A stretch of 64,000 nt of DNA from Heptranchias perlo (Eukaryota). The position numbers were made by a program, and so were the translations under genes. The notes beneath the pieces were generated by a model. It was not told the DNA's origin, ran no database searches, and worked only from the letters and a program-made list of their open reading frames with translations. Positions 5,711 to 63,012 of the stretch are shown one piece after another (position 1 is the stretch's first letter; every line of letters starts with the position of its first letter). The DNA lies in the NCBI RefSeq assembly GCF_035084215.1, contig NW_027139666.1, forward strand, positions 930,001 through 994,000. Direction: 5' to 3'.

Positions 5711-7338
5711 GTCCGGGACTCTGGAGAAAATCTCTCTGACAGTCAGAGCTGGGTCAGAAATGAAACGAGAGGCGGCGGCACAGAGCAACTTAAAGGCACA
5801 AAGCGGACGGGGCGGAGACACCTTGCTGTCAGCTCCCGGCCCCTCCAGCCTCTCTGTGTTTCTCTCTCCTCTTAAACTCGCCGGTTACAATTAAAATCGG
5901 GCACTCCAGAGTCCCAGACTAGCCCCTTCCTATATCTAACACCGGAATGTTTGCTGTCGAAAAACTTTCACCGGAATTGAAAGCACCAGTTTCGATTTAA
6001 ACCCGTTTCATTGCTGCACTGATCGCGCTCTCTCACCCGATCGCTGACAGGATCTCCGTTTTTCGTCTGAAATCTTGAATTTAACTCAAACCTTACCTTA
6101 ATTTTTCACTTCGGAGCTCGGCAGGGGAGGAGTGCGATCCTTTGAAAGGGATTTTTAAAAATTTTACTGAAAAGCGACCCGGAAATCCGGCGATGTGACC
6201 GGCCACACAAACACAGTGACATTAATCTAACCCGCCCGCCCGTTTAACACACTCTCTCTGACACAATGTTCACATCTTCACATTCACAGGACAAACTGGT
6301 CGCCAGATTGACAATTCCCGGGACAGGCTTTCCTCCCCGCTCGACCTGTGCTGCAGATTCTCGGGGTTTAGTTGTAGTTTCCCAGCTCAGTAACTGTTAA
6401 ACACTCTGAGGCCGGCGCTCCTCACAGTGACCGTCTCACCAACAGCACCGGAGGTCTGTTCACAAACACTGAATCAGTCTTTACCTTCCATCAGGGTGTC
6501 GATATTAAGCTCAGTAACAGTATTTCGCTTTCATTTACAGCGCTGGAGAGAGAGAAAGACAGACCGACAGATAAACAGACAGACAGAGACACACACACAG
6601 ACAATGTATCAGTCTCACACTTCCTATCAGTATGTCCGTTTCACACTCAATAACAGTATCCCACATTCATATGCTGTGCAAAAGAGAGAGAGATAAACTG
6701 ACCTGGAATGTCCAGTTTTCACTCAGTAACAAATTGGAAAAATTCTCCATTCCAATTGCTATTCCAAGGTGGAGTGACAGAAGATGCAGTCTCATCTCTC
6801 ACTAAAATTATTTCAGAGACAGACACATTATTAATCCCATTCTCAGGGACAGTGTCACACATTTAACCCTCTCTTGCATGTTTCACCCTTTGTAATCTTG
6901 CAGCTCAGGCCCATTCAGTATTTCCCTCAGTGACCGAGAGTTTCATTCCGATTGAAATAATCTGGGACTGTTGCTGTCAGATGTTAATCCCACACGGTCG
7001 CAGCAAATATACGGACTCCCACTTTCCTCCGCTGTTTCTCCAGGATTGGTTTGAGAAATCCTCCCTCCAGTTTCGGAGTCACGGGTTGCTTTATCAGTCA
7101 GGGAGCCAAGAATGAACAGAACCCATTGGCTCATTTCACAGACGCCCATTTTATCAATGAAAGGCCTTTTACCATCAAAAGATACCGAGAGAAACAGCAG
7201 GGATGGAAACATCGAGTTTAATAGTGAGAGATTGTAAAGTCAGTCTGGATTCCAGCGTTAGGCACTGGTGGAATCCCATCTGTTTCCATTCTGGTGCCTG
7301 TTCCTGCACTGTCTGTGGACCCCATTCCCTTTGACCTT

Positions 7339-7447
7339 TCTGAGAGTGATAATATACATACTGTGTGTGAGAAGGAGTTGGCTGCACTGTTCCTTTGTCT
7401 CGGGGGGAGGAAACTTCACATTCATTCTGGATCCTTCTCGGATTTGC
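7339..7447 (-). repeat. Inverted duplicate of exon 3 of gene X copy A (8464-8572)
   Basis: Reverse complement matches 8464-8572 almost exactly; absent from the paralogous promoters at 35.9 kb and 56.5 kb. Confidence 0.85.
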
Positions 7448-7517
7448 TCAGACTCTGAAAAATTCCAATTGGGGAAAGTTTCCATCGATTTTTGTATTGG
7501 GAATTAAAACAGATATC

Positions 7518-8688
7518 TGCGCATGCGTGACCCAGCCCCGCCCCCAACGCTGATTGTTGATGAGCAGAAGAGCGCATGCGCGCTCCCCTCCCCCAGCTCA
7601 GCCTGTGGGCGCCATTCCCTCAGTGAGCGGAAGAAGATGGTTTAAAACAGCCGGGAATGGAGAGATCACGGCCCCCGGGGGAAGGGAGCAAAGAGCAGCC
7701 GCGTTACAGCAGCTCATCGCTTCGGGACCGTGTCCGCAGATGGGCTCAGAGATCGGCATTGAGTCCAGGGTGAGGGCAGGGGAGTCCGGGGTCTGTTTGT
7801 AAGAGGCGGAGTGGATCAGGATCTGGTCCCGGAACATGGAGTGAGCGGGGGAAGGGAGAGTTCATTCTCGGGCTGTGTGTGTACAGGGTGTGTCCAGGGG
7901 AAGGGAGAGAGAATGGGAAGAACGTGCTATTTAAAATCATTGCTGTTTTCTCTCCCCAAACCAGTAGTGAATGGTCCTGGTTTAGTTCCTATCTCACCCT
8001 GTTTATTGTTATTGGACAGTGAAGAGTGGAAACAGAGCCGGACAGTAAGGATGTGGGGAGTTATGCAAAGAGCATCTATTGAAAGCACCAGGTGAGAAGT
8101 GTGAAGGACACATTTCAAACAGCGGCTGTTTGCTTTCTGTTGAACGGTTAGTCCCATGGGAGAGGGGATTAGAAACCCGACCTGTACAAAGGGCCCTGCC
8201 CCATAGGGTAGTCCCATTCATGGATCAGTGCAGGGGTTGCATTTTGTCTGGATGTCACTCAATTGTTCTAAAACAGCCTAACACACCTGGTATGCTGAAG
8301 CTGAGTGCTGCAGGACTGCAGTCGAGTCAGACACTGACAATGTATCACTGGTTTTCATTTGTCGAAGCACAAAATAATTATTAACAGAGCTATTAAACTG
8401 ATCACTTTTGTATTTTCTACCTCACCTGTTATTGAGTAACAAGAGATAATTTTCTTTCTACAGGCAAATCCGAGAATGATCCAGAATGAATGTGAAGTTT
8501 CCTCCCCCCGAGACAAAGGAACAGTGCAGCCAACTCCTTCTCTCACACAGTAGGTATATTATCACTCTCAGAGCACAGAGACACAGACAGGTCATCAGTT
8601 CCACAGTCTCAGACAGCAGAAGTAGTCAGTTCCACACTGATCCCAAGTTCCAGAGACACATTTTCAATCCAACAGTCAAACAGAGCAG
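7518..8688 (+). pseudogene. Unknown multi-exon gene 'X', copy A (promoter; exons 7657-7798, 8020-8091, 8464-8549/8688), disrupted
   Basis: NRF1-like sites at 7518 and 7572; GT/AG sites shared with the other copies; TGA at 7771, 1-nt deletion in exon 1, TGA early in exon 3. Confidence 0.5.
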
Positions 8689-13322: not shown

Positions 13323-13363
13323 TTAAACCTGCCCATTAACCTTTAGTGTTTGTTATTGAACAG

Positions 13364-14010
13364 TAAACAGAGCCGGACAGTAAGGATATGGGGTGTTATA
13401 CAAAGAGCATCTATTGCAGGCATCAGGTGAGAAGTGTGAAGGTCACATTTTAAACAGCGGCTGTTTTGTTTCGGTTGAACGGTCAGTCCCATGAGAAAGG
13501 GGAGTAGAAATCTGATATGTACAAAGGTCCCTGCCCAATCGGGTAGACCCATTCATGGATCAGTGCAGGGGTTGGGTTGTGTCTGGATGTCACTCAATTG
13601 TAAAATTGCCCAACACACCTGGTGTGCAGAAGCTGAGTGCTGCAGTACTGCAGTGGAATCAGACACTGACACTGTTTGTATCGCTGTTTTTCCTTTGTGG
13701 ATATTACAATGATTATTAACAGAGAGATTCAATTGATCACTTTTGCTTTTTTCTACCTCACCTGTTCTTGAGTTACAAGAGACAGTTTTTTTTCCATCAG
13801 TCAATTCGTTGAAGGACCCAGAATCAGTGTGATGTTTACTCCACCCGAGGCACAAGGAGCAGTCAGTGCAGCCAGCTCCTTCTCACACACAGTATGTACA
13901 TTAACACTCAGAGCATAGAGACACAGACAGGTCATCAGTTCCACATTCTCAGATAGCAGAAATGGTCAATACCACACTGATCCCAATCCAACAGTCAAAC
14001 AGAGCAGGAG
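13364..14010 (+). pseudogene. Gene X copy B (exon 2 at 13364-13426 with in-frame 9-nt deletion; exon 3 from 13801)
   Basis: Homology to copies A, C and E; CAG|GTGAGA donor retained; exon 1 absent. Confidence 0.45.
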
Positions 14011-14149
14011 AGACAGACGGAATTTCTATTTCACAATGACTCAGTACCGCTGACTGGCAAATAAATAATTCCCAGTCCAAAATCACACCCAGTTTCAGAT
14101 TGAAAGGCACTGTTTCAATTCTCACATTATTTCAGCCTTAGCTACAAAT

Positions 14150-25286: not shown

Positions 25287-25511
25287 CTCCTCTGTTTGGC
25301 TGTTGGATTGAAAATGTGTCTCTGGAACTTGGGATCAGTGTGGGACTGACGACTTCTGCTGTCTGAGACTGTGGAACTGATGACCTGTCTGTGTCTCTGT
25401 GCTCTGAGAGTGATAATATACATACTGTGTGTGAGAAGGCGCTGGCTGCACTGTTCCTTTGCCTCGGGTGGAGGAAACGTCACATTCACTCTGGCTCGTT
25501 CAAGGGTTTGC
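25287..25511 (-). pseudogene. Gene X copy D, isolated exon 3 (long form, 225 nt, open)
   Basis: TTCTACAG acceptor, AG|GTGAGG donor, open frame RQTLERARVNVTFPPPEAKEQCSQ...KQR; upstream exons missing. Confidence 0.45.
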
Positions 25512-26514: not shown

Positions 26515-26964
<450 letters not shown>

Positions 26965-27761
26965 TTATTGACTGAAAGATCATCTGATTGGTTGGGCATT
27001 ATTACACCTCATTTGCCTATTTCAATAACCAATCAGATAGCTGGAAATTAGATGAGGGCGGGATTCAACAGCCTCAACGGACAGATTAGGAATTTTATGA
27101 ATTTCAAAAAACCCGCCAGTGTCGTAAAGGACCGGATTTAGATCAATGTCGCCCTGAGCACAAGATTTTAAACCCGTTCATTTTATCTTTTCTTATTCAG
27201 CGGTACCCGTCACCAATCGCTGGCGCTGTTTTAAAATCTGCTTTAATTTATGGCTCATTCTATTATCGCTTACAAACTGTACCGGACGGGACTAAAGCCC
27301 CATTCACAGCATTCCGTGAAGTGACACGTTTTTATTCAGTCTTTATGAAAGTGACACGTTATAGTTTGTTCCTTTCTCACAGAGCCGGGAGTGCTTCTAT
27401 TAAACGAGGGACCCGGACGGAATTCTCATTCTGCGCCTATTCCGCTGTGTTTCTGCAAGGGGTGCGTTTGCTTTTAAAATGGGGATTTTCACCTCAGACA
27501 TTAAACATTTCTGAGATTGAATTCATGGAGATAATGGAATTGCTCCCGGGGTCATTCAGGGTGTGTTCGTGGCTGGAATAGTAACGCTTTAAGAACAAAA
27601 CGAATGGGAAGGAGCGGATCAGAAACTCGCGTTCAGTTTATGGGTCAGAAATTTCAACGGTGCAGTTACAGTATCAGTTTTGGATTGGAATAATATCGCG
27701 GTATTAAAAAGATACTAAGCAATTATATAGGAAATGCAGCTCTTTCAGAGAGGTTGTGGGT

Positions 27762-27777
27762 GGCTCTTAAAAGAGCC
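27762..27777 (-). promoter_or_regulatory. Histone 3' stem-loop (H2B) with canonical HDE
   Basis: Reverse complement GGCTCTTTTAAGAGCC; HDE GAAAGAGCTG at 27737-27746. Confidence 0.96.
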
Positions 27778-27809
27778 GTTGTGGTTTTTTTTCAGTACAT
27801 TGTGGAGTT

Positions 27810-28184
27810 TTACTTGGAGCTGGTGTACTTGGTCACCGCCTTTGTCCCTTCCGACACAGCGTGCTTGGCCAGTTCCCCGGGCAGCAGCAGGCGCACGGCG
27901 GTCTGAATCTCCCGGGAGCTGATGGTCGCCCGCTTGTTGTAATGGGCCAGGCGGGAAGCCTCACCCGCGATGCGCTCGAAAATATCGTTCACAAAGGAGT
28001 TCATGATGCCCATGGCCTTGGAGGAGATGCCGGTGTCGGGGTGAACCTGCTTCATCACTTTGTAGATGTAGATGGAGTAACTCTCCTTCCTCGACTTTCT
28101 CCGCTTCTTGCCGCCCTTGGCTGGTGCTTTACTCAAGGTTTTCTTGGCGCCCTTCTTGGGAGCTGCTTTCTTGTCCTCAGGCAT
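27810..28184 (-). CDS. H2B: Histone H2B (124 aa)
   Basis: Intact [16 protein letters not shown] and AMGIM variants. Confidence 0.98.
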
Positions 28185-28970: not shown

Positions 28971-30637
28971 GAATAGTGATGTCTTGAGGAGTGTACATAT
29001 TACAGAGAGGGAGGTGCTGGAAGTCTTAACGCGCATCAAGGTAGATAAATCTCCGGGACCTGATGAAATGTATCCCAGGACGTTATGGGAGGTTAGGGAG
29101 GAAATTGCGGGTCCCCTAGCAGAGATATTTGAATCATCCACCGCTACAGGTGAGGTGCCTGAAGATTGGAGGGTAGCAAATGTTGTGCCTTTGTTTAAGA
29201 AGGGCGGCAGGGAAAAGCCTGGGAACTACAGACCAGTGAGCCTGACATCTGTAGTGGGTAAGTTGTTAGAGGGTATTCTGAGGGACAGAATCTACAGGCA
29301 TTTGGAGAGGCAGGGACTAATTAGGAACAGTCAGCATGGTTTTGTGAGAGGAAAATCATGTCTCACGAATTTGATTGAGTTTTTTGAAGGGGTAACCAAG
29401 AAGATAGATGAGGGCTGTGCAGTAGACGTGGTCTACATGGACTTCAGCAAAGCATTTGACAAGGTACCGCATGGTAGGTTGTTACATAAGGTTAAATCTC
29501 ATGGGATCCAAGGTGAGGTAGCCAATTGGATACAAAATTGGCTTGACGACAGAAGACAGAGGGTGGTTGTCGAGGGTTGTTTTTCAAACTGGATGCCTGT
29601 GTCCAGCGGTGTGCCTCAGGGATCGGTGCTGGGTCCGCTGTTATTTGTTATTTATATTAATGATTTGGATGAGAATTTAGGAGGCATGGTTAGTAAGTTT
29701 GCAGATGACACCAAGATTGGTGGCATTGTGGACAGTGAAGAAGGTTATCTAGGATTGCAACGGGATCTTGATAAATTGGGCCAGTGGGCCGATGAATGGC
29801 AGATGGAGTTTAATTTAGATAAATGTGAGGTGATGCATTTTGGTAGATCGAATCGGGCCAGGACCTACTCCGTTAATGGTAGGGCGTTGGGGAGAGTTAT
29901 CGAACAAAGAGATCTAGGAGTACAGATTCATAGCTCCTTGAAAGTGGAGTCACAGGTGGATAGGGTGGTGAAGAAGGCATTCAGCATGCTTGGTTTCATT
30001 GGTTAGAACATTGAATGCAGGAGTTGGGATGTCTTGTTGAAGTTGTACAGGGCATTGGTGAGGCCACACTTGGAGTACTGTCTACAGTTCTGGTCACCCT
30101 ATTATAGAAAGGATATTATTAAACTAGAAAGAGTGCAGAAAAGATTTACTAGGATGCTACCGGGACTTGATGGTTTGACTTACAGGGAGAGGTTAGACAG
30201 ACTGGGACTTTATTCCCTGGAGAGTAGGAGGTTAAGGGGTGATCTTATAGAAGTCTATAAAATAATGAGGGGCATAGATAAGGTCGATAGTCAAAATCTT
30301 TTCCCAAAGGTAGGGGAGTCTATAACGAGGGGGCACAGATTTAAGGTGAGAGGGGAGAGATACAAAAGGATCCAGAGGGGCAATTTTTTCACTCAAAGGG
30401 TGGTGAGTGTCTGGAACGAGCTGCCAGAGGCAGTAGTAGAGGCGGGTACAATTTTGTCTTTTAAAAAGCATTTGGACAGTTACATGGGGAAGATGGGTAT
30501 CGAGGGATATGGGCCAAGTGCAGGCAATTGGGACTAGCTTAGTGGTATAAACTGGGCGACATGGACATGTTGGGCCGAAGGGCCTGTTTCCATGTTGTAA
30601 CTTCTATGATTCTATGATTCTATGATTCTATGAATAG
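28971..30637 (+). mobile_element. Young 5'-truncated CR1 LINE (RT domain to 3' end)
   Basis: RT motifs GVPQGSVLGP and FADD; one premature TAG at 30004; (TTCTATGA)4 tail; GAATAG duplicated at 28971-28976 and 30632-30637; paralogous empty sites at ~12710 and ~61760. Confidence 0.95.
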
Positions 30638-30749: not shown

Positions 30750-33700
30750 AGGTCAGTCTCTTGTACTGTGTATGAGAGCGGGATTTCATCTGCATCTGTC
30801 AATCTCTGATACTGTGTGTGTGGGATTCATTCTGCATCTGTCATTCTCTGGTACTGAGTATGAGCATGGTATTTATTCTGTATCTCTCAGTCTCTGGCAC
30901 TACATATGAGTTTAGGATCGTTCTGTATCTGCCAGTCTCTTTCACTGTATATGAGAGAGGGATTAATTCTGTATCTGCCAGTCTCAGGTACTGTGCATAA
31001 GTGTGGAATTAACTCTCTTACTGTCAGTCTCTGGTGCTATCTGTGATTGTGGGATTCATTCTGCATCTGCCATTATCTGCTACTTTATCTAAGTGTGGCA
31101 TTCATTCTGTCATTCAGTCACTGAGACAAAGTGCAAATCTGAATTCATTCTGTATTCTTATTTCAGTTACCAGTATTTTACTTGAAACTGTATCTTTAAC
31201 ACTTTAAAGTATATGCAGTTTTTCGTCAAGTATTTAATTTGTAAATATGGATATATTTTTCGATTTTCTTTAATCAAACCACGTGTGTGGGTTTTAGAGT
31301 AGCATCACATCTTAATCTCTGAACTCATATGTGAATGATAATGTACCTTTCAATCTGTCCATGGTGAAATTATTGGACTGGTATGTTATGTGCAGCTCAG
31401 ATCTGCAATAATGTCTGTGATTACTTTCTGTAAGTGTGGGATTCATTCTGTTCCTGTCAATTTCTGGTATTGTGTGTGAGTGAGCTTAATTTTGTATCTG
31501 TCAGTCCCTGGTGCTGTATATGGTTGTGGGATTCATTCTGTATCTATCAGTCTCGGGTGCTGTATGTGAGTGTAGGATTCATTCTGTATTTGTCAGTCTC
31601 TCGATCTGTATGTGAGTGTGGGATTCATTCTGTATCTGTCAGTCTCTGGTACAGTCTGTGAGTGTGGGAATCATTCTGTATCTCTCAGTCCCTGGTACTG
31701 TGTGTGAGGGATTCATTCTGTATCTGTCAGTCTCTGGTACAGTCTGTGAGTGTGGGATTCATTCAATATCTGTTAGTCCCTGGTATTGTGTGTGAAGGAG
31801 GGTTTCATTCTGTTCCCCTCAGTGTCAGATGCTGTATGTGAGGGAGTCATTCATTCTGCATCTATCAATTTCTAGTACTGTTTGTGAGTGATATAAATGT
31901 TGTCTCTGTCAGTCCGTGCTACAGTGTGTGAGTGTAGGATTCATTCGGTATCTGTCAGTCACTGGTATATTGTGCGAGTGTTGGTTTCATTCTATTTGTC
32001 AGTCTCTGGTACTGTGGGAGTGTGTGAATCATTCTATGTCTGTCAGTCCCTTGTACTGTGTGTGAGTGCAGGATTCATTCGGTATCTGTCAGTCACTGTT
32101 ACATTGTGTGAGTGCTGGTTTCAATTTGCATGTCAGTATCTGGCCCTCCATCTGAGTGTGAGATTCATTCCTTATCTGTATGTAATTTGCATCTCCGTTT
32201 ACAGTATGGTGTTCCAAACTATCTTTAATACCTCAATGTATCAATATTTTTCCCAGTGTTTAATTGGTAGATAATGATACATTTTAAAATGTAATGCTGT
32301 AGGTTATAATCAGAGAATGTGGGCACTTTTTGGACTTCTATTAAATCTGTATCGAGGGAAAACAATTGTGACTTAGTTTATCTTCCAAAATGATATGGTG
32401 ACATTTTTGAACTTGTATATAATGTGTAGGTCAGTCTGAATGAATGGAATACTGTATATGTCAGTCTCAATCTGTATCAGTTTTTTGTAGTGGTTTATAA
32501 TGTGTAGATCAGTCTGCACTAATGGAATTGATACTGTATCTTTCAATCTGAAACTATGAGATTTTTGGACTGTGTATTGTGTAACTCAGACTGCATTAAT
32601 GTGTGTGACTGTGAGATTCATTCTGTATCTGTCAGTCCCTATTACTGTCTGTGAGTGTGGGATTCATTCTGTATCTGTCAGTCCCTATTACTGTCTGTGA
32701 GTGTGGGATTCATTCTGTATCTGTCAGTCCCCAGCACTGTCTGTGAGTGTGGGATTCATTCTGTATCTGTCAGTCCATAGTACTGTCTGTGAATGTGTGA
32801 TTCATTCTTTATCTGTCAGGCTCTGGTACTGTGGGAGTGTGTGATTCATTCTATGTCTGTCACTCCCTTGTACTGTGTGTGAATGTAGGATTCAATCAGT
32901 ATCTGTCAGTCACTGTTACAATGTGTGAGTGCTGCTTTCATTCTTTTTGTCAGACTCTGGCCCTCTATCTGAGTCTGAGATTCATTCTTTATCTCTGTGT
33001 AATTTGTATCTCCATTTACAGTATGGTGTTCAAAACAGTATCTTTAATACCTCAATGTATGCATATTTTTCCCAGTGTTTAATTGGCTGATAATGAAATT
33101 CTGTAGAATATAGTCAGAGAATGTGGGCACTTTTCAGACTACTATTAAATCTGTATCGATGTGAACACAATTGTGCATTAGTTTCTCTTCCAAACTGATA
33201 AAGTGACATTTTTGAACTTGTATATGATGTGCAGCTCAGTCTGCATGAATGGAAAACTGTATATTTCAGAGTGAATTTGCATCAGTTTTTTGTAGTGGTT
33301 TATAATGTGTAGATCAGTCTGCACTAATGGAATTGATACTGTATCTTTCAATCTGATACTTCTTGGACTGGTAAGTAATGTGTTACACAGCCTGCACTAA
33401 TGTGTGATTCATTTTGTATCTCCCAGTCTCTGGAACAGTGTGTGAGTGTGAGATTCATTCTGTATCTTGTCAGTCGTGTGTGTGAGTTTGTGATTTATTC
33501 TATATATGCAGTCTCTGATACTGTGAGTGTGGGATTTATTCTGTGTCTTTCAGTCTCCAGTCTTGTATGTGGGTGTTGAATTCATTCTATTTCTGCAGCC
33601 TCTCAGACTGCATGTTGGTGTGGGATGCATTCACTATCTGTCAGTCTCTGGTACTGTGTGAATGTGGGAGTCATTATTTATTTGTCAGTCTCTAGTACTT

Positions 33701-34330
33701 TATGAGAGTGAGTAATTAACCAGATATCGATCAGCCCTTGGTACTGTATGCCAGTGTGGGATTCAAACTGTATCTGTCATCTCTGGTACCATATGTGAGT
33801 GTAGGATTCGCTCTGTGTCTGTCAGTCTCTAGTATTGTATGTGAGTTTGGGATTCCTTTTGCATCTGTCAGTCTCTGGTACTGTATCTGAGTGTGAGATT
33901 CATTCTGTATTTGTATGTAATTATTCTCTCAGATTGCATTATTGCGTTCAAAATTGTAGCTTTAATATCTTCATGTTTTGGTCATATCTCTCATTATTTA
34001 ACTGGTAAATATGGATACACTTTAGGATTTGACGCTGTAGGTTTTAATCAGATAATTTATCTGCTTTTTGAACTACTATTAAATCTGTATCTCTGTAAGT
34101 ACAAATGTGTATGATAATGTATATTTCAAATTGATATGGTGACACTTTTCAAATGGTATATAATGTGTAGCTCAGTCTATACTAATAGAATTGATACTGT
34201 ATCTATAAATCTCATACTATGAGTGTATTATCAACTGATATCTAATTTGTTTCTCAGGTTACACTGTCACAGCATTTCTCAATCTGATACTGTACATGAG
34301 TTTTGGACATGTATGGAATTTGTATCACAT
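30750..34330 (-). repeat. Composite 46/82-bp satellite, inverted, with internal kb-scale duplication
   Basis: Same units as 8900-12590 on the minus strand; the block near 31990-32580 is repeated near 32815-33370. Confidence 0.88.
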
Positions 34331-34764
34331 GATACATGCAATATCCATTCGAATAGTGTATTAAACTCACATGTGTGTGTGAGTTCTGAGCTAGTATTCA
34401 ATTGGAATCTCAGGGTACATTATTGGGATAGATTATGTACCTTCCAATCGGGTGCCATGTGTGATTTCGATCTGTGATTTAATTCGTACCTAATGTTGCC
34501 CTATTGTGAGATTGACTCAGTGCCTTTCAATCTGATAGTGTGATCTTGGACTGGGATTTTTGTATCTACCTGTCAGCGGGACTCAGCTCGGGGGAAATGG
34601 AACAGTGTCTGCCTCACCTGCTCTGTTTGAACGTTGGATTGAAAATGTGCCTGTGAAACTTGGGATCAGTGTGGGACTGAGTGCTTCTACTGTCTGAGAC
34701 TGTGGAACTGATGACCTGTCTGTGCCTCTGTGTCTCTGTGCGCTGTGTGTGATAATGTACTTAC

Positions 34765-35663
34765 TGTGTGGGAGAAGGAGTTGGCTGCACTGTTCCTTGT
34801 GCCTCGAGTGGAGGAAACATACCACTGATTCTGGGTCCTTGAAGGATTTGCCTGTCGGAAGAAATTTATCTCTTGTAACTCAAGAACCAGTGAGGTAGAA
34901 AATACAAAAGTGTTCGAATTAATATCCATGTCAATGATTATTTTGAATATCCACAAATGAAAACCAGTGATACAAACAGTGTCAGTGTCTGACTCCACTG
35001 CAGTACTGCAGCACTCAGCTTCTGCACACCAGGTGTGTTGGGCAATTTTACAACAATTTAGTGACATCCAGACACAACCCAACCCCTGCACTGATCCATG
35101 AATGGGACAACCCGATGGGGCAGGGACCTTTGTACAGGTCAGGTTTCTAATCCCCTCTCCCATTGGACTTACCGTTCAAATGAAAGCAAACAGCCGCTGT
35201 TTAAAATGTGTCCTTCACACTTCTCACCTGATCCCTGCAACAGACGCTCTTTGTATAACTCCCCACATCCTCACTGACCGGCTCTGTTTCCACTCTTCAC
35301 TGTCCAATAACAACAAACAGGGTGAGACTGGAACTAAACCAGGAACATTCACTACTGGTTTGGGGAGAGAAAACAGCAATGGTTTTAAATAGCAGGTTCT
35401 TCCCATTCAGTCTCCCTTCCCCTGGACACACCCTGGACACACACAGCCCGAGAATGACCTCTCCCTTCCCCCGCTCACTCCATGTTCCGGGACCAGTTCC
35501 TGATCCACTCCGCCTCTTACAAACAGACCCCGGACTCCCCCTGACCTTCCCCCGGACTCAATGCCGATCTCTGAGCCCATCTGCGGACACGGTCCCGAAG
35601 CGATGAGCTGCTGTAACGAGGCTGCTCTTTGCTCCCTTCCCCCGGGGGCCGTGATCTCTCCAT
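34765..35663 (-). other. Gene X copy C: three-exon open reading frame (35663-35521, 35299-35228, 34851-34765), product unknown
   Basis: ATG then donors GTAAGA, GTGAGA and GTAAGT, CAG acceptors, all introns phase 2, no stop in about 100 codons; the 3' part was not located. Confidence 0.5.
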
Positions 35664-35669
35664 TCCCGG

Positions 35670-35810
35670 CTGTTTTAAACCATCTTCTTCCGCTCACTGA
35701 GTGAATGGCGCCCACAGGCCGAGCTGGGGGAGGGGAGCGCGCATGCGCTCTTCTGTTCACCAACAACCAGCGCTGGGGGCGGAGCTGAGCCGCGCATGCG
35801 CAGATATCTG
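35670..35810 (-). promoter_or_regulatory. GC-rich promoter of gene X copy C
   Basis: Two perfect GCGCATGCGC (NRF1-like) at 35739 and 35792, a GC box and an ETS-like CGGAAG. Confidence 0.6.
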
Positions 35811-36769
35811 GTTTCAATCCCAATACAAAAATCGATGGAAACTTTCCCCAATTGGAATTTTTCAGAGTCTGAGCAAAGGAAATGGGGCTGGGGGAAAGGT
35901 CAGAGGGAATGGGGTCCACAGGCAGTGCAGGAACAGGCACCAGAATGGAAAACAGATGGGATTCCACCAGTGCCTAACGCTGGAATCCAGACTGACTTTA
36001 CAATCTCTAACTATTAAACCAGATGTTTCCATCCCTGCTGTTTCTCTCGGAATCTTTTGATGGTAAAGAGCCTTTCATAGATAAAGTGGGCGGGTGATAA
36101 ATGGCTTTGATTCATTCTTGCACTCTTTACTGATAAAACAGACGCGTGAGGAAGAAGCTGGGGCGGGGGGAGGATTTCTCAAACCAATCCTGGAGAAAAA
36201 AGGAGGAAAGAGTGAGTCGATGTGTTTGTTGGGATCGTGTCGGATTAATATCTGACAGCACCGGTCCCAGATTAATTTAATCAGATTGAAACTCTCGATT
36301 ACTGAGAGTAATACCGAACGTCCCTGAGCTGCAAAACAGAATAAAGTACAACAGGCAAGAGAGGGTTAAATGTGGCCCATTGTTTTTGTCACTCTCTGAA
36401 CTGTGTGTGGGATTAATAGTGTGTCTGCCTCTGGTACAATATCAGTGAGAGATGAGATTGCATCTTTTGTCTCTCCAATTGGATATTTCTGGATTAAACG
36501 AAACTTTACAGGTTAGTCTGCAACTGATACTGTGGCACTTTGTCTCTCCGTGTTCTCTCTCACCGTGTCTGTCTCCCTGTCTCCCTCTCTCTGTCTCTCT
36601 CTGGTGCTGTATATGAATGTGGGATGATGCTATTGAGCTTGATATGAACACACTGATAGGAAGTGTACGATTGTCAGTGTGTGTTTGTCTCTCTGTAGTG
36701 CTGGACATGAAGGTGGGATACTGTCTGACATAAAACAGAGAGAATGGGTTCTCCGGGCCGGGCCGCAGT

Positions 36770-37290
36770 GTAACCGGGGATGTGTTCGGCTTCAGTCCCA
36801 GTTCATGGACATTTCTTTTTCACAGATTCAGGGTGAGAGTCTCTGTGAGACGGTACCACTAGCGGAGAAACATCGCGTCTCAAGTCAAACCCCAACACAA
36901 GAGATTCTCGAAATCAGCTAGAATAAAGTGTTTGTAAACTGCTGAACCCGTCCGGGAGGGGATGTGTGGGGAGATAGAATCGGGGGAGTCTGGGACTGAA
37001 ATGGAAGGAGGCGGGTTGACTTGTTATAGAAGGGACTGTATTTAGGCAGGAATATTACTGACTGTTAATTGTAACGGGGCTTATTTAAAAGCTGCGGGTT
37101 TCTGGAAATCCTTGAATATGAAGTCCGAGTATGTAAGAGTTTGTCCAGAGCGCTGTGTTTCGGTTCTAATATCGATAAACTGTTTGAAATTGGCGGGTGG
37201 AGAAAGCTGGAGGTGGAGCTGGAAGATCAGAGGCCGCTCTCTGCTCTGTCTGTCACTCTTTCTCCTCCACTCCCGCCCTCTCTGTTTAAT
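36770..37290 (+). other. Orphan H4 upstream region with the gene absent
   Basis: Reverse complement of ~4270-4765; no H4 CDS follows. A shorter copy lies at 55455-55640. Confidence 0.75.
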
Positions 37291-38930: not shown

Positions 38931-39029
38931 TCTAATGCTTTAAACTTGTATTCAATTTCTGTTCCTTCTTCAAAGATTTCAATAAGGTTGGTCCTGTCCT
39001 TTGGGATATCAGATTAAATCTTTGCCGCT

Positions 39030-39413
39030 TTACTTGCTCTTGGAGCTGACAATGCTGGTTTTCTTCGGCAGCAGCACGGCCTGGATATCTGGCGACACCC
39101 TGAGCGATGGTCACCCGTCCCAGCAGCTTGTTGAGCTCCTCGTCGTTGTGGATGGCCAGCTGCAGGTGTCTGGGGATGATGCGGGTCTTCGTGTTGTCGT
39201 GGGCTACGTTGGCGGCCAGCTCGAGGATTTCAGCCGTCAGATACTCGAGCACAAAAGCCAGATAGACCGGGGCTCCGGCACCCACATTCAGCGGATTTCC
39301 ACTTTCGCAGGAGCAAGTGAACACGGCCCACAGGGAACTACAGTACCGGCCCGGGATGAGCGAGGCTTGGCCTTGGCCCGAGCTTTAACGCCGGTTTTTC
39401 CTCTTCCAGACAT
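39030..39413 (-). pseudogene. H2A: Histone H2A pseudogene
   Basis: Several indels, CAG>TAG at 39338-39340, stem-loop cut off after AAAGG (~39000), promoter interrupted by a LINE fragment. Confidence 0.93.
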
Positions 39414-41371: not shown

Positions 41372-44485
<3,114 letters not shown>

Positions 44486-44559
44486 TTCCTCATTGTACGG
44501 TCAGTGTCTGTTTAGCAAACCGGCTCTGAATTCCTCAGTCTGTATTTCGAGAAAGGGTT

Positions 44560-44782
44560 CTGTGCGCGACGCGGGCAATATGAACGGTGACCGACGCACT
44601 GCGACTAATGGCGGCCGGAGGCCCCACAATACCCGCGCCCCAGAAACCCCTCTATCTCTCCAAGGTGCTGATTTTCCGCTCAGACTGCGCATGCTCCCGA
44701 GGACCGCCGTGCATTCTGGGAACTCATCGCTGCTTTGTTCGCGAGTCGGACTCGGTGGAAACGGGAGAAGAAACCGGTAAGC
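44560..44782 (+). promoter_or_regulatory. CpG-rich promoter and probable first exon of the zinc-finger gene
   Basis: AATGGCGGC (YY1-like), TGCGCATGC (NRF1-like), strong donor CCG|GTAAGC at 44777. Confidence 0.55.
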
Positions 44783-45187
44783 GGCGGGTAGGACGGGGGA
44801 GGCGCTGGATGATGGGTGTAATGGAGTCCCGGGACCCCCGCCCGCCCGATCCCCCGGGTCCCCCGGCTCTGATTCAGGGCCTGAGCCGCACTCGGTGTTG
44901 CTGAGACTCCGCTCAGTGCAAATGCAGGTTGTTGTTGATCTGCTCCCGTTGGCCTCAGCTTTGCCGGTCAGAATCAGCCAGGGACGGTGACTGTGCTGCT
45001 CCCAATGGTTGAAATGCCGGCAGCTCGCTGTACAGGCTCACAGGTGCAGAATTACCACTTGGCCGGGTACTGGAGGGCAATCAGTGACTGGGGCCGAAAC
45101 CCAACATCACGCAGAACCTTCAGGAGAGAAAAGGAGGAAAAATAGATCCTGCCATGAATCTGGATTTCAAACAGCGAGGACGTGTCA

Positions 45188-45882
45188 CGGAGGGAGAGTG
45201 TGTGGGACGGGGGAATTCACAGCTTAATAGGGGCAAGGAGGGAGAGTGTGTGGGACGGGGGATTTAAGCTTAATAGGAGCAAGGAGGGAGAGTGTGTGGG
45301 ACGGGGGATTTACATCCCAGTAGGGGCAAGGGGGGAGAGTGTGGGACAGGGGTTTTACAGCTTAATGATGGAAAGGAGGGAGAGTGCGTGGGACGGGGGA
45401 TTTACAGCTTAATAGGAGCAAGGAGGGAGAGTGTGGGACGGGGGATTTACAGCTTAATCGGGGCAAGGAGGGAGAGTGTAGGTCGGGTGATTTGTAGCTT
45501 AACAGGGGCAAGAAGGGATAGTGTGTGGGACGGGGGATTTACATCCCAGTAGGGGCAAGGGGGGACAGTGTGGGACAGGGGTTTGACAGCTTAATGATGG
45601 CAAGGAGGGAGAGTGTAGGTCGGGTGATTTATAGCTTAACAGGGGCAAGAAGGGATAGTGTGTGGGACGGGGGATTTATAGCTCAATAGCGGCAAGGAGG
45701 GAGAGTGTGTGGGACGGGGGATTTACAGCTTAATAGGAGCAAGGAGGGGGAGTGTGGACGGGGGATTTACAGATTAATCGGGGCAAGGAGGGAGAGTGTG
45801 TGGGAAGGGGCATTCACAGCTTAATAGGGGCAAGGAGGGAGAGTGTGTGGGACGGGCCATTCACAGCTTAGGATGGGCAAGG
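45188..45882. repeat. G-rich 45-48-bp minisatellite, ~15 copies
   Basis: GGAGGGAGAGTGTGTGGGACGGGGGATTTACAGCTTAATAGGGGCAA units. Confidence 0.9.
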
Positions 45883-45974
45883 GAGAAAAGAATGCTCCAG
45901 AGAAACTAGAACTGTGTGTTCTGAATTTCTATCCTGTATTTATGGCGATGAATTATGTAAATATGAGCACAGAT

Positions 45975-46400
45975 GCGTAGAGGCTTGTATTCTCTTGAAT
46001 ATACAAGATTAAGGACTGATCTAATTGAGGTGTTTAAGATGATGAGAGGTTTTGATAGAGTAGATGGAGATAAACTATTTCCTCTGGTGGGAGAGTCCAG
46101 AACAAGGGGGAATCATCTTAAAATTAGAGCTCGGCCATTGAGGGGTGATGTCCGGAAGCAATTCTTCACACAAAGGGGAGTGGAAATCTGGAACTCTCTT
46201 CACTCCAAAAAGCTGTTGAGGCCGGGGGTCAATTGTAAATTTGAAAATTGAGTTTGATAGATTTTAGTTTGGCCAAAGTATTAAGGATTCTTATGCCAAG
46301 GAGGGTAGATAGAGTTAAGATATAAATCAGCCATGATCTAATTGAATGGCGGAACCGGCTCGTGGGGCTGAATGGCCAACTCCTGTTCCTATGTTCCTAA
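45975..46400 (+). mobile_element. CR1-like LINE 3' fragment
   Basis: GLYSLEYTRLRTDLIEVFKMMRGFDRVD...FFTQRGVEIWNSL plus 3' UTR. Confidence 0.8.
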
Positions 46401-46479
46401 ATGCAGCCATCCGCAATAAGATTGTGGATGGCAAGGGCCTTGCTCACAAGTGAACGGACATCTGGAGGGAGATGCGGTG

Positions 46480-47630
46480 AGAGCAGGTGACTGGTCAGGG
46501 AGTGTCTGTAAATGAAGTAGAAATGGGGACGGTCAGGGAGCGTCTGTCAATGAAGGAGAAATGGTGACTGGTCATGGAGTGTCCGTAAATGAAGGATAAA
46601 TGGTGACTGGTCATGGAGTGTTTGTCAATGAAGGAGAACTGGTGACAGGTCAGGGAGTGTCTATAAATGAAGGAAGAATGGAGACGGTCAGGGAGTGTCT
46701 GTAAATGAAGGAGAAATGCTGACTAGTTAGGGAGTGTCTGTAAATGAAGGAAAAATGGTGACTGGACAGGGATTGTCTCTAAATGAAGGATAAATGGTGA
46801 CGGGTGAGGAAGTGTCTGCCTATGAAGGAGAAACAGTGAATTATCAGGGAGTGTCTATCAATGAAAGAGAAATGGGGTCAGGTCAGTGAATGTCTGTAAA
46901 TGAAGAATAAATGGTGATCAGTCAGGGAGTGTCTGCAAATGAAGGAAAAATTGCCTGATTATGGAGTGTCTGTAAATGAAGGAAAAATAGTGTCTGGTTA
47001 GGGAGTGTCTATAAATGAAATCGAAATGGTGACAGGTCAGGGCGTGTCTATAAATGAAGGAGGAATGCTGACGGGTCAGGGAGTGTATATAAATGCAGGT
47101 GAAATGGCACCTGGTAAGGGAGTATCTATAAATGGGAGAGGACATGGTGACAGGTCATGGAGTGTCTATAAATGAAGGAAAAATGGTGACGGGATAGGGA
47201 CTATCTATAAATGACGGAGAAATGGTGACAGTTCAGGCAGAGTCTGTAAATGACGGAGAAATTGTGACAGTTCAGGCAGAGTCTGTAAATGATGGAGAAA
47301 TGGTGACTTGTCAGGCAGCGTTTGTTAATGAAGGAGAAATAGTAACTGGTCAAGGAGTGTCTGTCAATGAAGGAGGAACGGTGATTGGTCCGGGAGTGTC
47401 TGTGAATGCAGGAGAAATGTTGTCATGTCAGGTATTGTCTACAAATGAAGAAGAAATAGTGATGGGCCAGGGAGCGTCTATTAATGAAGGAGAAATGGTG
47501 TTTGATCAGGGAGTGTCTGTAAATGAAAGTGAAATGGTGACTGGTCAGTGAGTGTCAGCAAATAAAGGAGAAATTGTGATAGGTCAGGGATAGTCTTTAA
47601 ATGAAGGAGAAATGGTGACTGGTCAGGGTG
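46480..47630. repeat. 39-bp minisatellite, ~29 copies
   Basis: GTGACTGGTCAGGGAGTGTCTGTAAATGAAGGAGAAATG units. Confidence 0.92.
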
Positions 47631-47744
47631 ATTCCGTCGCCAAATTTGGGAGGTATTACATATGGACTGCTTACAGGCAGCTGTAGGGAGGGACATAGTG
47701 TCGAAATGAGGGGCAGACCATATACACACAGCAAGAGTGAACAT

Positions 47745-47935
47745 CTTCAGGAGAGGAGAGGGGAACCAGTGAGTGTAGAACTGAATCCAACCAGAGTCAG
47801 CACATTCAGGGGAAGAGAGAGTTGGGAGCAGTGAATGTAGAACTGAACCTAGCCAGAGCAAGCAACTTCAGTGGAGGAGAGGGAATGGAACCAGTGAGTG
47901 TAGAACTGAAACCAGTCCGAGTCGGGATCTTCAAG
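47745..47935. repeat. ~60-65-bp tandem repeat, 3 copies
   Basis: CAGTGAGTGTAGAACTGAA...CCAGAGTCAGCAC.TTCAGG repeated. Confidence 0.65.
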
Positions 47936-48142
47936 ACAGAAAAATTAAATAGAAGGAAAATTGTTGCAAGTGATGCGATGGGTTTGCGTTTCAGCAGATG
48001 GAGGAGGGTGAGTGTGCGGGACGGGGATTTACAGTCTGTGGGAATGAGCGAGCGGGTAGAATGTTCCATAGAAACTAGAATTGCCTGTTCTGAATTTCAA
48101 TCCCGTATTCACAGTGAGGACTTTTGTTATCTCCTTTTACAG

Positions 48143-49595: not shown

Positions 49596-49899
49596 CTGCA
49601 GGAGTTGGATTCTGCTGTTATTGCTGTATCCAGGACTAAACCACGTTCATTCTGACAGTTGGAGTTTGTTTCTGATGTTAATGACCCCCTTTAACTGGGC
49701 TGAAGTTTAGTATTCTGTACAAGTGTCAAATAAATCAGCTTTCTTTTAAACACAGTGTTTTTGACCTTCATATCTCGATGATAAAAGAAACAGTTGGAGG
49801 ATGTATGACGACGTGAGTGGAATACATCTTCGTACTGAGCTCCTCCACCTTTTTAAAAGATAGATCTTCAAGATATCCAAGTCTGACAGGACATAAAAT

Positions 49900-51880: not shown

Positions 51881-51949
51881 ACACGAACAGAGCAAGACAC
51901 ACACAGAGGTCTCACAACAGAGCATGAACGGTCTCAAGGACCACCTCCC

Positions 51950-53506: not shown

Positions 53507-53578
53507 CTGATGCCTGCAATAAATGATATTTGTATAACTTCCAACATCTTTACGATTCGGGTCGGTTTCCACTATTCA
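53507..53578 (-). pseudogene. Gene X copy G, dead exon 2
   Basis: 72-nt homologue with the CAG|GTGAGA donor retained, acceptor mutated to CAC, in-frame TAG. Confidence 0.45.
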
Positions 53579-54230: not shown

Positions 54231-56596
54231 TAGGGGGTAATTTCACCTTCACATCTTGGGAGGTAAACTGACGGAGCAAGAATTAAAATCGGGCGGGTTC
54301 TGTAAGGGGCGGGTGATCGGCTCTACCAGTTCAGTCCCCAGCGATGCTGAAAATTTCCCTCCACGTGTTATGAACCGATGCAATTTGAGAAAATGGACCA
54401 GCTTGTGGGCTTCGAAGATTCATTCTAGGGCGTAGGTCAGGAAAGGTGTGGCCGATTTTAAGTATCCTCGCCTGGCGGAAATAGGGTGGTCGAGGCTTGT
54501 AAATGGTGTCAGGTCATTACCGCCCCTTTAACACTGGCGTTCCTGCCTCCACCATCGTGGGTCATGTCCTGAGAAGAGCGGCCCGAGCAACACCCACCTG
54601 TTTCCGGTCAGGCCACTTGTAATATGTAAATCAGAGTATTATGACGTACACGGGAAACCATTTAATGCTGGCTAAAAATGGATGGAGGAGCCGCCCTTTC
54701 GATGGATATTGAGTGGTCCAGAACTCTGAGAAGTTTCTTTTTAACATATATTTTGTGGGGCAAGGAGGAGCAGGAGAGCTTTCCCTTGGCCTGCTGCGGC
54801 CGTGTGAAATCTCCCGCCCCCTGATCGTCTCAGAAATGTATCAGGAGGTTTCCTTATCGATCTCTGTAACCAGGCCCAGCCTCATGTCCCATTAAACTCC
54901 CTGCAGTGAGTAAACATTGCTGCACAGCAGCTCAGAGAGGAAACGATCTCCGGAACTCCCCACTGGAGTTTGAAATTACATTAATATTTTACCAGTTAGT
55001 AACGGTCCGGGTGTTGGTCCATTATTATTCTGTTCTGGTCAAAACAAATGTCCCAATGAACAGGACGCTGTCTGACCCTGACAGCTCACCCTCAGTCCAT
55101 CCCACCAGGCAGTGTGTGTGATGGGAAATAATCATCAACCGAAATGGAGCATTTGATTTTATTCATTACAGGATTAAACATTTAATATTGAAATCATATT
55201 ATTTCCCGACTAATAACAGCAAACCATTTCATGTTAGAATCACATCTTGCATTATTTCTCAAAAAGCATTTGTTGGATAAAATATAATTCCTGTCTGTTA
55301 TTTCCAAATTTATTTGAAGTATTGGATTGATATCAGTTACTTCAGTGAACTCATTGGTGTCAATGGATAGTAAAATCAGGCGTAGTGAACAATGGGGTCC
55401 CAATCCGCTATCGCCGACTTACTCCACCGCCAAAGCGGAAAATCCACTCTCTTAATTAGCAGTTTACAAAATTCTTATTCCAGCTGATTTGTAGAATCTC
55501 ATGTGTTGGGGTTTGAATTGTGAAGCGGATTTTCTCCGCCAGTTTTACCGTCTCACAGAGACTCTCACCCTGAATCTGTGAAAAGGTTATGACCATGAAC
55601 TGGGACTGGAGCCGAACACATCCCCAGTTCCGGTGTGGCCTGGACAGCCCATTCTCTCTGTTTTATATCAGACAGCATTCCACCTTCAAAAACAGCACTC
55701 GAGAGAGAAAGCAAGACACACACTGTCAGTCTTACACTTCCTATCAGTATGTTCATATCACGGTTAATAGCAGTATCCAACCTTCATATACAGCACCGGA
55801 GAGTGAGAGAGAAAGGGAGACAGATACTGTGACAGAACGAGCGGAGAGGCACAGTGCAACAGTATCAGTTCCAGACTGACTTGTAAAGTTGCGTTTTATC
55901 CAGAAATTCCCGTTGTAGAGACAGAAGATGCAGTCTTATCTCTCACTGATATACCAGGGACGGACACACCATTAATCCCACACTCAGGGACAGTGCAGAG
56001 AGTGACAAAAACAATGTGGGCCGAATTTAACCCTCTCTTGCCTGTTGTACTACATTCGGTTTTGCAGATCAGGGCCGTTCGCTATTACTCTCAGTGACCG
56101 AGAGTTTCAATCTGATTATATTAATATGGGACTGTTGCTGTCAGATATTAATCCTACACGCTCCCAGCAAATACACGGACTCCGACTTTCATCCCATTTT
56201 TCTCCAGGATTAGTTTGAGAAATCCTGCATCCAGTTTCGGAGTCACACGTTAATTAATGGTTAATTGGGCCAAGAATGAACAGAATCCTTTGGCTCATTT
56301 CAAAACGTCCCACTTTATCTATGAAAGACTATTTACCATCAAAAGATACAGAGAGAAACAGCAGGGATGGAAACATCTAGTTTAACAGTTAGAGATTGTA
56401 AAGTCAGTCTGGATTCCAGCGTTAGTCACTGGTGGAATCCCATCTGTTTCCCATTCTGGTGCCTGTTCCTGCACTGCCTGTGGACCCTATTCCCTCTGAC
56501 CTTTCCCCCAGACCCACTTCCTTTGCTCAGACTCTGAAAAATTCCAATTGGGGAAAGTTTCCATCGATTTTTGTATTGGGAATTAAACCAGATATC

Positions 56597-57751
56597 TGCG
56601 CATGCGTGACTCAGCCGCACCCCCGCGCTACTTGTTGGTGAGTGGAAGAGCGCATGCGCGATCCCCTCCCCCTGCTCGGCCGATTGGGGCCATTCCCTCA
56701 CTGAGCGGAAGAAGATGGTTTAAAACAGCCGGGAATGGAGAGATCATGGCCCCCGGGGGAAGGGAGCAAAGAGCAGCCTCGTTACAGCAGCTCATCGCTT
56801 CGGGATCGTGTCCGCAGATGGACTCAGAGATCGGCATTGAGTCCGGGGGAAGGTCAGGGGGAGTCCGGGGGCTTTTCGTAACAGGCGGAGTGGATCAGGA
56901 ACTTGTCCCGGAACATGGAGTGAGAGGGGGAAGGGAGAGGTCATTCTCGGGCTGTGTGTGTACCGGGTGTGTCCAGGGGAAGGGAGAGAGAATGGGGAGA
57001 AACTGCTATTTAAAATCATTGCTGCTTTCTCTTCCCAGACCAGTAGTGAATGTTCCAGGTTTAGTTCCAGTCTCACCCTGTTTGTTGTTTTTGGAGAGTG
57101 AAGAGTGGAAACAGAGCCGGACAGTAATGATATGTGGAATTATACAAAGAGCATCTATTGAAGGCACCAGGTGAGAAGTGTGAAGGACACAATTTAAACA
57201 ACTGCTGTTATATTTCTGTTGAAAGGTTATTCTCCTGGGAGAGGGAATTAGAAACCTGACCTGTACAAAGTCCCCGCCCCATCGGGTAGTCCCATTCATG
57301 GATCAGTGCGGGGGTTGGGTTGAGTCTGGATGTCACTAAATTGTTGTAAAACAGCCCAACACACCTGGTGTGCAGAAGCTGAGTGCTGCAGTACTGCAGT
57401 GGAGTCAGACACTGACACTCTTTGTATCGCTGATTTACATAATTATCATTAACAGAGCTATTAAACTTATCACTTTTGTATTTTCTACCTCACTGGTTCT
57501 GGAGTTACAACAGTTACTTTTTTCTTCTGACAGAAAAATACTTGAAGGGCCAAGAATAAATGTGATGCTTCCTCCATCCTAGGCACAAGGAACAGTGCAG
57601 CCAGCTCCTCCTCAAACACAGTCGGTACGTTATCATTCACAGAGACACAGACAGGTCATCAGTTCCACAGTCTCAGACAGCAGAAGCAGTCAGTCCCAAA
57701 CTGATCCCAATATCCGGCGGCACATTTTCAATCCAACACGGAAACAGAGCA
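56597..57751 (+). pseudogene. Gene X copy E (promoter; exons 56735-56877, 57099-57170, from 57534)
   Basis: NRF1-like sites at 56597 and 56650; exons 1-2 open and the same lengths as in copy C (143, 72 nt); TAG at 57580-57582; weakened splice sites. Confidence 0.5.
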
Positions 57752-62393: not shown

Positions 62394-63012
62394 TAAACAC
62401 AGTAAGGATGTGGGGAGTTATACAAAGAGCATCTATTGCAGGTATCATGTGAGAAATATGAAGGACACATTTTAAACAGCGGCTCTGTGGTTTTGGTTGA
62501 ACTGTTAGCCCCATCGGAGAGGGGATTAGAAGCCTGACCTGTGCAAAGGTCCCCGCCCCATCGGGTCGTCCCATTCATGGATCAGCGAAGGTGTTGGATT
62601 GTGTCTGGATGTCACTAAATGGTTGTAAAACAGCCCAACACACCTGGTGTACAGAAGCTGAGTACTGCAGTGGAGTCAGACACTGACACTGTTTGTATCA
62701 CTGGTTTTCATTTGTGTATATTACAATGATTATTAACAGAGAGATTCAATTGATCACTTTTGTATTTTCTACCTCACCTGTTCTTGAGTTACAAGACTTA
62801 ATTTCTCTTTCTACAGGCAAATACTTGAAGGACCCAGAATCAGTGTGATGTTTCCTCCGCAAGGAACAGTGCAGCCAGCTCCTTCTCACACACAGTATGT
62901 ACATTATCACTCAGAGCACAGAGACACAGACAAGTCGTCAGTTCCACAGTCTCACACAGCAGAAATAGTCAGTACCACACTGATCCCAATCCAACAGTCA
63001 AACAGAGCAGGA
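62394..63012 (+). pseudogene. Gene X copy F (damaged exon 2; exon 3 from 62817)
   Basis: Homology to copy B; TTTCTACAG acceptor at 62816. Confidence 0.45.

Follow-up and report, generated by a model that had tools for sequence, protein, structure and literature searches.

In the newt Notophthalmus, clusters of histone genes are reportedly separated by satellite 1 DNA, an arrangement that Diaz and Gall are said to have described in 1985. 5S rDNA and U snRNA genes are linked inside histone units, and DBE-T, the transcript of the D4Z4 array, may act in cis on chromatin. CpG-island promoters of the NRF1/ETS/YY1 type with non-coding first exons occur in vertebrate C2H2 zinc-finger genes. Excerpts of PMC11602149 cite the newt histone and satellite work of Diaz and Gall (1985), and those of PMC2114352 deal with read-through transcription of newt satellite 2. 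In molluscs, crustaceans and fish, 5S rDNA and U snRNA genes found with multigene repeats are co-amplified and evolve by birth-and-death together with homogenisation, according to excerpts of PMC4106214, PMC3215682 and PMC3464664. Ampliconic lncRNA and macrosatellite units such as DBE-T at D4Z4 represent non-coding transcripts tied to a tandem array (PMC12049803, in excerpt), and excerpts of PMC6930868 treat nuclear bodies and satellite RNA in general terms.

Here we describe a spliced unit from a histone array of the shark Heptranchias perlo. The window, i.e. the whole stretch of DNA analysed, spans 64 kb of the 3.25-Gb genome. Its histone genes are replication-dependent and carry 3' stem-loops; alongside them lie a tRNA, LINE pieces, one C2H2 zinc-finger gene and satellites of 46 and 82 bp. 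Our main reading, to which we assign a probability of about 0.72, is that a multicopy spliced transcription unit occupies the spacer of the shark histone repeat and that its product is likely not a protein but a short non-coding RNA. As in Notophthalmus, satellite tracts alternate with vertebrate histone groups and are situated in the transcription path. Whereas read-through in the newt starts from gene promoters, each shark spacer contains a CpG promoter and spliced exons of its own, which face away from H1; the spacer RNA does not come from a histone promoter, as depth is near zero upstream of the unit's promoter and H1, H3 and H4 face the other way. Like the 5S rDNA and U snRNA genes, the shark unit probably represents a gene for a non-coding RNA that was amplified along with a tandem gene family; unlike those structured Rfam families, it is multi-exon and lacks an Rfam match or a conserved fold. 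It resembles DBE-T in being an array-linked transcript with a putative cis role on chromatin, and differs in that each of hundreds of repeats has one promoter, within replication-dependent histone arrays; no sequence relation between the two is expected. Palindromes reading GCGCATGCGC, which we take to be NRF1-type sites, CGGAAG and AAGATGG motifs near the start and short spliced 5' exons recall the NRF1/ETS/YY1-type promoters; unlike zinc-finger genes, the unit shows no homology that we could detect to the promoter or leader of its zinc-finger neighbour, and no downstream coding exon was found. Among openly accessible papers we found no description of this unit. The genome annotation may already carry these units as uncharacterised non-coding loci. 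The features of the focal unit, its surroundings and the related copies in the window are as follows.

35840..36050, minus strand: conserved upstream block, ~210 bp, non-CpG; diversity 0.035; very little coverage by RNA contigs; probably belongs to the promoter
35700..35830, minus strand: GC-rich promoter with two GCGCATGCGC palindromes (35792-35801 and 35739-35748)
35675..35683, minus strand: minimal uORF ATG GTT TAA, intact in 74 of 96 distinct copies
35551..35700, minus strand: exon 1 core with ATG at 35663; least variable part of the unit, diversity 0.015
35551/35550, minus strand: RNA-supported donor position in exon 1; GG in the focal copy, GT in 25 genomic copies
35421..35550, minus strand: exon 1 extension, holding the donor chosen by the first-pass annotation at 35521/35520 (GTAAGA)
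35421/35420, minus strand: second RNA-supported donor position; GG in the focal copy, GT in many copies
35228..35299, minus strand: exon 2, 72 nt; joints use both its acceptor (35299) and its donor (35228); often skipped
34765..34851, minus strand: exon 3, with depth peak and joints; 83-91 nt among copies
34460..34764, minus strand: exon 3 extension or candidate terminal segment, with alternative donor 34618/34617 and ATTAAA at 34483-34478
30752..34256, minus strand: alternating 82-bp and 46-bp satellite blocks, 3' of every full unit
26515..28184, minus strand: H2B and H2A genes downstream of the focal unit on the same strand (context)
6770..8675, plus strand: full paralogue in divergent orientation to H1 (1.9 kb); exon 3 interrupted by a stop
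13364..13891, plus strand: promoterless duplicate of exon 2 (63 nt) and exon 3 (91 nt)
25287..25511, minus strand: orphan exon 3 with open 225-nt extension
53507..53578, minus strand: degenerate orphan exon 2; acceptor lost, stop
55458..57738, plus strand: full paralogue; GAG as acceptor of exon 2, exon 3 interrupted by a stop
62394..62894, plus strand: promoterless duplicate of exon 2 (55 nt) and exon 3 (78 nt)

The exon structure first noticed in the focal copy is real. Exons of 143, 72 and 87 nt (35663-35521, 35299-35228 and 34851-34765) were recovered as annotated, with CAG acceptors and GTAAGA, GTGAGA and GTAAGT donors; every junction is in phase 2, and the spliced focal frame runs for 100 codons without a stop. 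The two NRF1-like palindromes claimed for the GC-rich promoter are present at 35739 and 35792, and the tiny uORF lies ahead of the ATG at 35683-35675. Its recurrence in hundreds of copies, together with joints in sequencing contigs, places this structure far beyond chance. Exon 2 is open in one of three frames, as had been stated, exon 1 in two and exon 3 in all three, so that the openness of exons 1 and 3 is weak evidence. The sizes reported for exon 2 held for the focal, 8.0-, 53.5- and 57.1-kb copies (72 nt) and for the copy at 13.4 kb (63 nt), but the exon 2 at 62.4 kb had been left out and maps as 55 nt, out of frame. Similarly, the alternative 225-nt exon 3 exists as an open extension at 25.4 kb, but is open just through a frame shift, the exon 3 core of that copy being 86 nt; in the focal copy the same extension measures 234 nt and has a stop at codon 30. 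The paralogue at 6770..8675 also has a stop in exon 1 when read up to the 35521-type donor.

Several further observations concern the window. H2A pseudogenes with stops and frameshifts lie at 1452-1841 and 39024-39413 among intact histone genes, and LINE pieces at 28972-30626 and 42761-44415, in opposite orientation, are 99.8% identical, suggesting a recently active LINE. The C2H2 zinc-finger gene (44540-49600) comes with a separate CpG promoter near 44.7 kb; its leader intron contains tandem repeats of 47 and 39 bp, and its frame is broken near 48.7 kb. A second GC-rich promoter-like region (51944-52960), containing a GCGCATGCGC site (52880) next to a GC-rich tandem array with 22-bp repeats, is unrelated to the spliced-unit family and absent from the other loci examined. 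The 82-bp and 46-bp satellites appear mutually related (9324-16010, 30752-34256). Degenerate 46-bp-like DNA also occurs upstream of the unit's promoter (35900-36500), which suggests that the spliced unit is embedded in an old satellite array.

We measured copy number using probes from the unit. A 22-mer from exon 1 had 824 genomic matches (≤1 mismatch), a 23-mer from the same exon 632 exact matches and a 22-mer at the exon 2 acceptor 875, while the conserved upstream block returned 875 candidates genome-wide; for comparison, histone probes gave at least 460 H2B and at least 305 H4 matches, which are probe counts rather than gene counts. The histone gene complement is unusually large, and H4 probe rows are absent from the H2B-rich C49 array. 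Among the first 100 matches listed for each exon probe (of 824 for exon 1), all were confined to array regions (C2, C3, C49 and unplaced contigs) and none was a dispersed insertion at an unrelated site. In contrast, the H2B and H4 probes also match many chromosomes singly. We examined 32 copies in long contexts. The downstream neighbour was a same-strand H2B gene in 19 and a convergent H2A gene in 5 of the 24 with a downstream gene in view, and the upstream neighbour was a divergent H1, H3 or H4 gene in 11 and a same-strand H2A gene in 8. Full units run from satellite-like upstream DNA through the 210-bp block, promoter and exons 1-3 to alternating 82/46-bp satellites, and are often accompanied by promoterless duplicates of exons 2 and 3 or of exon 3. 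The unit is a regular component of the histone repeat rather than a dispersed element. The proposal that a spliced family was co-amplified with the histone module is supported, its lncRNA alternative included, but its protein-coding alternative is not.

Sequencing runs X1 and X2 (organism A, one sample), X6 (organism B) and X5, all presumed to be RNA, were mapped over 34280-36950. The data consist of contigs, which carry no strand, ends or levels and from which rare variants are dropped; the listing covers 15 of the 20 joints and 19 of the 131 loose ends. Depth peaked over exons 1 and 3, respectively, at 46,041 and 17,772 in X1, 190,036 and 96,250 in X2, and 2,383 and 1,790 in X6; these three runs also displayed a shoulder spanning intron 1 and exon 2, with a depth below 500 upstream of 35810. 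X5 was flat (0-35) and without joints. Since depth fell from 13,040 (X1) and 132,507 (X2) at 35630-35719 to 526 and 3,754 at 35720-35809, the transcript likely starts near 35700-35720, as a rough estimate. Joints of exon 1 to exon 2, exon 1 to exon 3 and exon 2 to exon 3 were carried by X1, X2 and X6 contigs, and the exon 1-exon 3 junction motif had no match in the genome. Exons 1 and 3 alone give a spliced length of ~235 nt, i.e. more than 200 nt from the unit's own promoter, provided that the runs are RNA as presumed.

Six of the 15 listed joints end at 35550/35551, two at 35421 and two connect the exon 2 donor to exon 3. The first-pass annotation had placed the exon 1 donor at 35521. Of the two junctions it predicted, that between exons 2 and 3 was found joined, but neither 35521/35299 nor any other joint at 35521 appears among the 15 of 20 listed, and the 19 of 131 loose ends listed do not include 35521/35299 either. 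Position 35550 reads GG in the window copy and 632 copies, and GT in 25 (22 in C3, 2 in C2 and 1 in C1275). The junction letters match exactly the C3 copies L110 and L111/L118 and the C2 copy L105, and match at 30 of 31 positions the C2 copy L042, which carries ACG for ATG, indicating that the 35551 joints derive from GT copies. A non-canonical GG-AG intron at 35551 was considered and ruled out, as the junction letters trace to GT copies. Because these letters match individual genomic copies, organism A is likely Heptranchias perlo itself. In X6 no depth extends beyond 35527, from which we infer that the GT donor at 35551 is likely the ancestral state. Within the first 250 nt, three sites of the G[G/T]AAGG type (35640, 35550, 35420) switch between GT donor and GG among subfamilies. 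Alleles private to the focal copy (35527, 35277, 35373) are near-absent from the contigs (at 35527, 14 of 4,636 in X1 and 0 of 54,320 in X2). As this copy also reads GG at both supported donors, the RNA evidence concerns the family and not the focal copy.

Past exon 3 most depth is lost; 1,200-3,300 remains until ~34460, followed by ~300 (X1/X2). These values partly resolve the 3' end, with an edge near 34460, just past the ATTAAA at 34483-34478 in the exon 3 extension, where polyadenylation would presumably be directed; ATTAAA near 34480 is kept in 42 of 49 copies. The earlier suggestion that transcription continues into the satellite was not borne out, since contig depth drops near 34460, ahead of the satellite, although diverged copies may be lost at the 85% cut-off. 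In X2, a loose end at 34764, carried by 4 contigs (agreement 0.74), marks a candidate fourth exon. It resembles exon 3 starts (up to 16/31), and its first six letters equal the zinc-finger acceptor at 48143. A 30-mer from this candidate had no match in the genome, a 20-mer had 4 compared to 2 for the control, and it was absent from 1.25 Mb of DNA examined. A promoter-loss subfamily was also observed: 9 of 40 sampled copies (L085, L086, L092, L095-L097 and L102-L104) lack the whole NRF1 promoter through a deletion equivalent to window positions 35672-35866, with exon 1 still at 97-98%. A convergent zinc-finger gene lies downstream in 8 of these 9 copies, and contigs of X1 and X2 show this deletion too, in the form of a joint.

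Coding potential was measured in 69 of ~824 copies, taken from the first matches listed (40 via the exon 1 23-mer and 30 via the exon 2 22-mer, two duplicates dropped and the focal copy added), with distinct variants scored against the column majority and no tree model. The pN/pS ratio was 1.36 for exon 1, 0.65 for exon 2 (p 0.12), 0.85 for exon 3 and 0.90 pooled, and 0.99 for variants present in at least 3 copies. Purifying selection on codons was not detected in these 69 copies, the pooled 0.90 comparing with 0.97-1.01 for intron 2 read as codons. Frame-keeping was likewise not detected among the indels in all the DNA examined: 3 of 28 exonic and 29 of 163 non-coding indels were multiples of three (Fisher p 0.89). 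The claim of a coding family thus failed both comparisons, with pN/pS ~1 and indel phases no better than those of non-coding DNA. Among the 60 copies with all exons covered, 15 were open and in phase. All 17 fully covered copies with GT at 35551 stop at 32-37 codons, and the longest ATG frame was 34-79 codons in 15 GT-donor copies. Exon 1 is shorter by 1, 2 or 17 nt in 20 of 20 C3 copies of the exon 2-anchored set, 19 of which have the GT donor; this frameshift is probably one event copied ~20 times, so that the 17 of 17 do not represent 17 independent losses. In two C2 GT copies the ATG is replaced by AAG or ACG. Where the 35421 donor is usable, 16 of 18 copies stop before codon 50, and without use of the 35521 donor the exon 1 extension meets an in-frame TAA at codon 49. 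Conversely, splicing via the 35521 donor gives at least 90 codons in 29 of 59 copies, the ATG is kept in 94 of 96, the 35551 donor is likewise in phase 2 with exons 2 and 3 in multiples of 3, and exon 2 shows two indel events alone (9-10 and 15 nt) in 108 copies.

Searches for a product were negative; as the protein searches used the exon 1 peptide, a distant relative spanning the exons may have gone unnoticed. The exon 1 peptide had no protein match by word search, at near and longer lengths, none in the protein atlas, and none by phmmer over 1.84 billion representatives, a weak search with a 47-residue low-complexity query; the protein collection holds annotated Heptranchias perlo proteins, and the H2B and H1 of the window fall there into clusters in which every named member comes from this shark. 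No Pfam family was found for any exon, and a second open frame across exon 1 and intron 1 had no protein matches. A 249-codon stop-to-stop frame from promoter to exon 2 was rejected as a GC-rich chance frame, with pN/pS of 0.90-0.93 in alternative frames and closure in the focal copy. At the RNA level, Rfam yielded no match at gathering score or with E below 2, exon 1 had no conserved fold (z +0.94; alignment fold no better than shuffles, 55/100), and the fold of the upstream block was nothing unusual (z -0.56/+0.80). Taken together, contigs that bear junctions and coding tests that failed point to a gene that likely encodes no protein; we regard it as quite probable that the product is non-coding.

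We next consider the uneven diversity of the unit. In 49 full-span copies, 18 of which were chosen for resemblance to the 5' part of the window, diversity was 0.163 upstream, 0.035 in the block, 0.065 in the promoter, 0.015 in the exon 1 core and 0.002 at its CpG sites, rising to 0.039-0.070 in intron 1, 0.074 in exon 2, 0.110 in intron 2 and 0.106 in exon 3. The exon 2-anchored set gave the same order, with identities of 97% for exon 1, 96.6% for the block, 88% for exon 2 and 86.5% for exon 3. Exon 1 is thus ~7-fold less variable than intron 2 (0.015 vs 0.110), synonymous sites included, and the trough of low diversity is independent of codon position and exon borders. Distances between copies correlate across regions at 0.16-0.78 only, indicating that the copies are mosaics. 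The invariance of exon 1 may reflect either nucleotide-level (DNA or RNA) selection on promoter and exon 1, or gene conversion centred on the promoter.

These findings suggest the following scheme. The CpG promoter would fire away from the H1/H3/H4 end of one group towards the H2B gene of the next, in keeping with the observed orientation, and its GT-AG joints suggest transcription by polymerase II. Across the family, exon 1 is spliced from whichever G[G/T]AAG donor reads GT, to exon 2 or directly to exon 3, and transcripts probably terminate at the ATTAAA near 34480, or else are joined to a further, exon 3-like exon. Judging from context, the unit spreads passively, by tandem and segmental duplication with histone genes, tRNA pieces and zinc-finger genes, promoter and exon 1 DNA being kept and codons not. 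If the unit has a role, the likeliest is a local one, that of an always-open promoter whose transcription would keep the satellite-rich spacer unsilenced; otherwise the unit would be a passenger homogenised by gene conversion. Any cis role, such as open satellite-laden spacers or the seeding of histone locus bodies, is putative, and we hold it as a tentative suggestion, less probable than its absence. We think it improbable that sharks possess a dedicated sixth histone-repeat gene, i.e. a non-coding promoter/exon 1 module in ~800 copies, under strong nucleotide-level selection and spliced alike in a second organism, whose DNA or RNA would nucleate the histone locus body or shield megabase arrays from satellite heterochromatin.

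Two rival readings retain a role for the codons. If ~630 GG-donor copies spliced at 35521, the family could encode a disordered protein of 100 residues, possibly de novo, that evolves by birth-and-death. The focal junctions, all in phase 2 with an open frame, the near-invariant exon 1 peptide, the opening of exons 1 and 2 in most GG copies, the 29 of 59 copies reaching 90 codons and a GGAATGG start context would fit such a protein. However, with exon 1 at a pN/pS of 1.36, its synonymous and CpG sites are equally invariant, exon 3 lengths of 83, 84, 86, 87 and 91 scatter the C-terminus over three frames, an out-of-frame ATG lies upstream, the 15 of 20 joints listed include none at 35521, and the peptide is absent from the predicted proteins in the annotated proteome's collection. 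Alternatively, the 5' fragment of an ancestral coding gene, comprising its promoter and three coding exons, may have been captured once in the histone spacer, decayed and been amplified as a transcribed pseudogene. This would account for the phase 2 kept at both main donors, exon 2 and exon 3, for an exon 2 that is mildly conserved and open in the matching frame alone, and for the unshifted C-run kept in C2 GT-donor copies; against it, indel phases are random, no single-copy parent occurs among the genomic matches listed, and no parent protein emerged by word search or from the weak phmmer query of 47 low-complexity residues. Retention of the ATG, the phase-2 donor, the few indels in exon 2 and the 29 of 59 long frames lead us to keep both the de novo and the decayed-gene readings, each at equally low odds.

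Two further readings concern what the unit is attached to. As an orphan or shared 5' leader, it would splice onto adjacent C2H2 zinc-finger or H2B coding sequence. Same-strand H2B genes come next in 19 of 24 copies, and the loose end after exon 3 shares its first six letters with the acceptor of the zinc-finger coding exon at 48143; yet that loose end fits exon 3 starts about equally (up to 16/31) and was not found in the genome, similarity to the zinc-finger promoter and leader is no higher than for shuffles, and neighbouring zinc-finger genes are mostly divergent or convergent, making a leader very unlikely. Least probable of all is a non-autonomous transposable element, or the remnant of an LTR, that carries an internal promoter. 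Such an element would explain the many copies and the promoter, splice sites and poly(A)-like signal contained within 2 kb, but among the matches listed copies occur in arrays only, the upstream flank continues histone spacer DNA (36752-37290 matches 4248-4767), and flanks are shared subfamily contexts rather than random sites.

A short non-coding RNA from a spliced unit of the histone spacer remains our preferred reading, and the family serves as a cautionary case in which tidy phase-2 exons and an invariant peptide probably make no protein. Its near-invariant exon 1 and single promoter per spacer offer a concrete target, since one guide RNA or antisense oligo reaches hundreds of copies. If gene conversion causes the invariance, the copies provide a naturally occurring map of where conversion tracts lie around an open promoter. 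The unit bears on how satellite-embedded histone arrays of vertebrates stay active, and on what seeds histone locus bodies outside flies and mammals.
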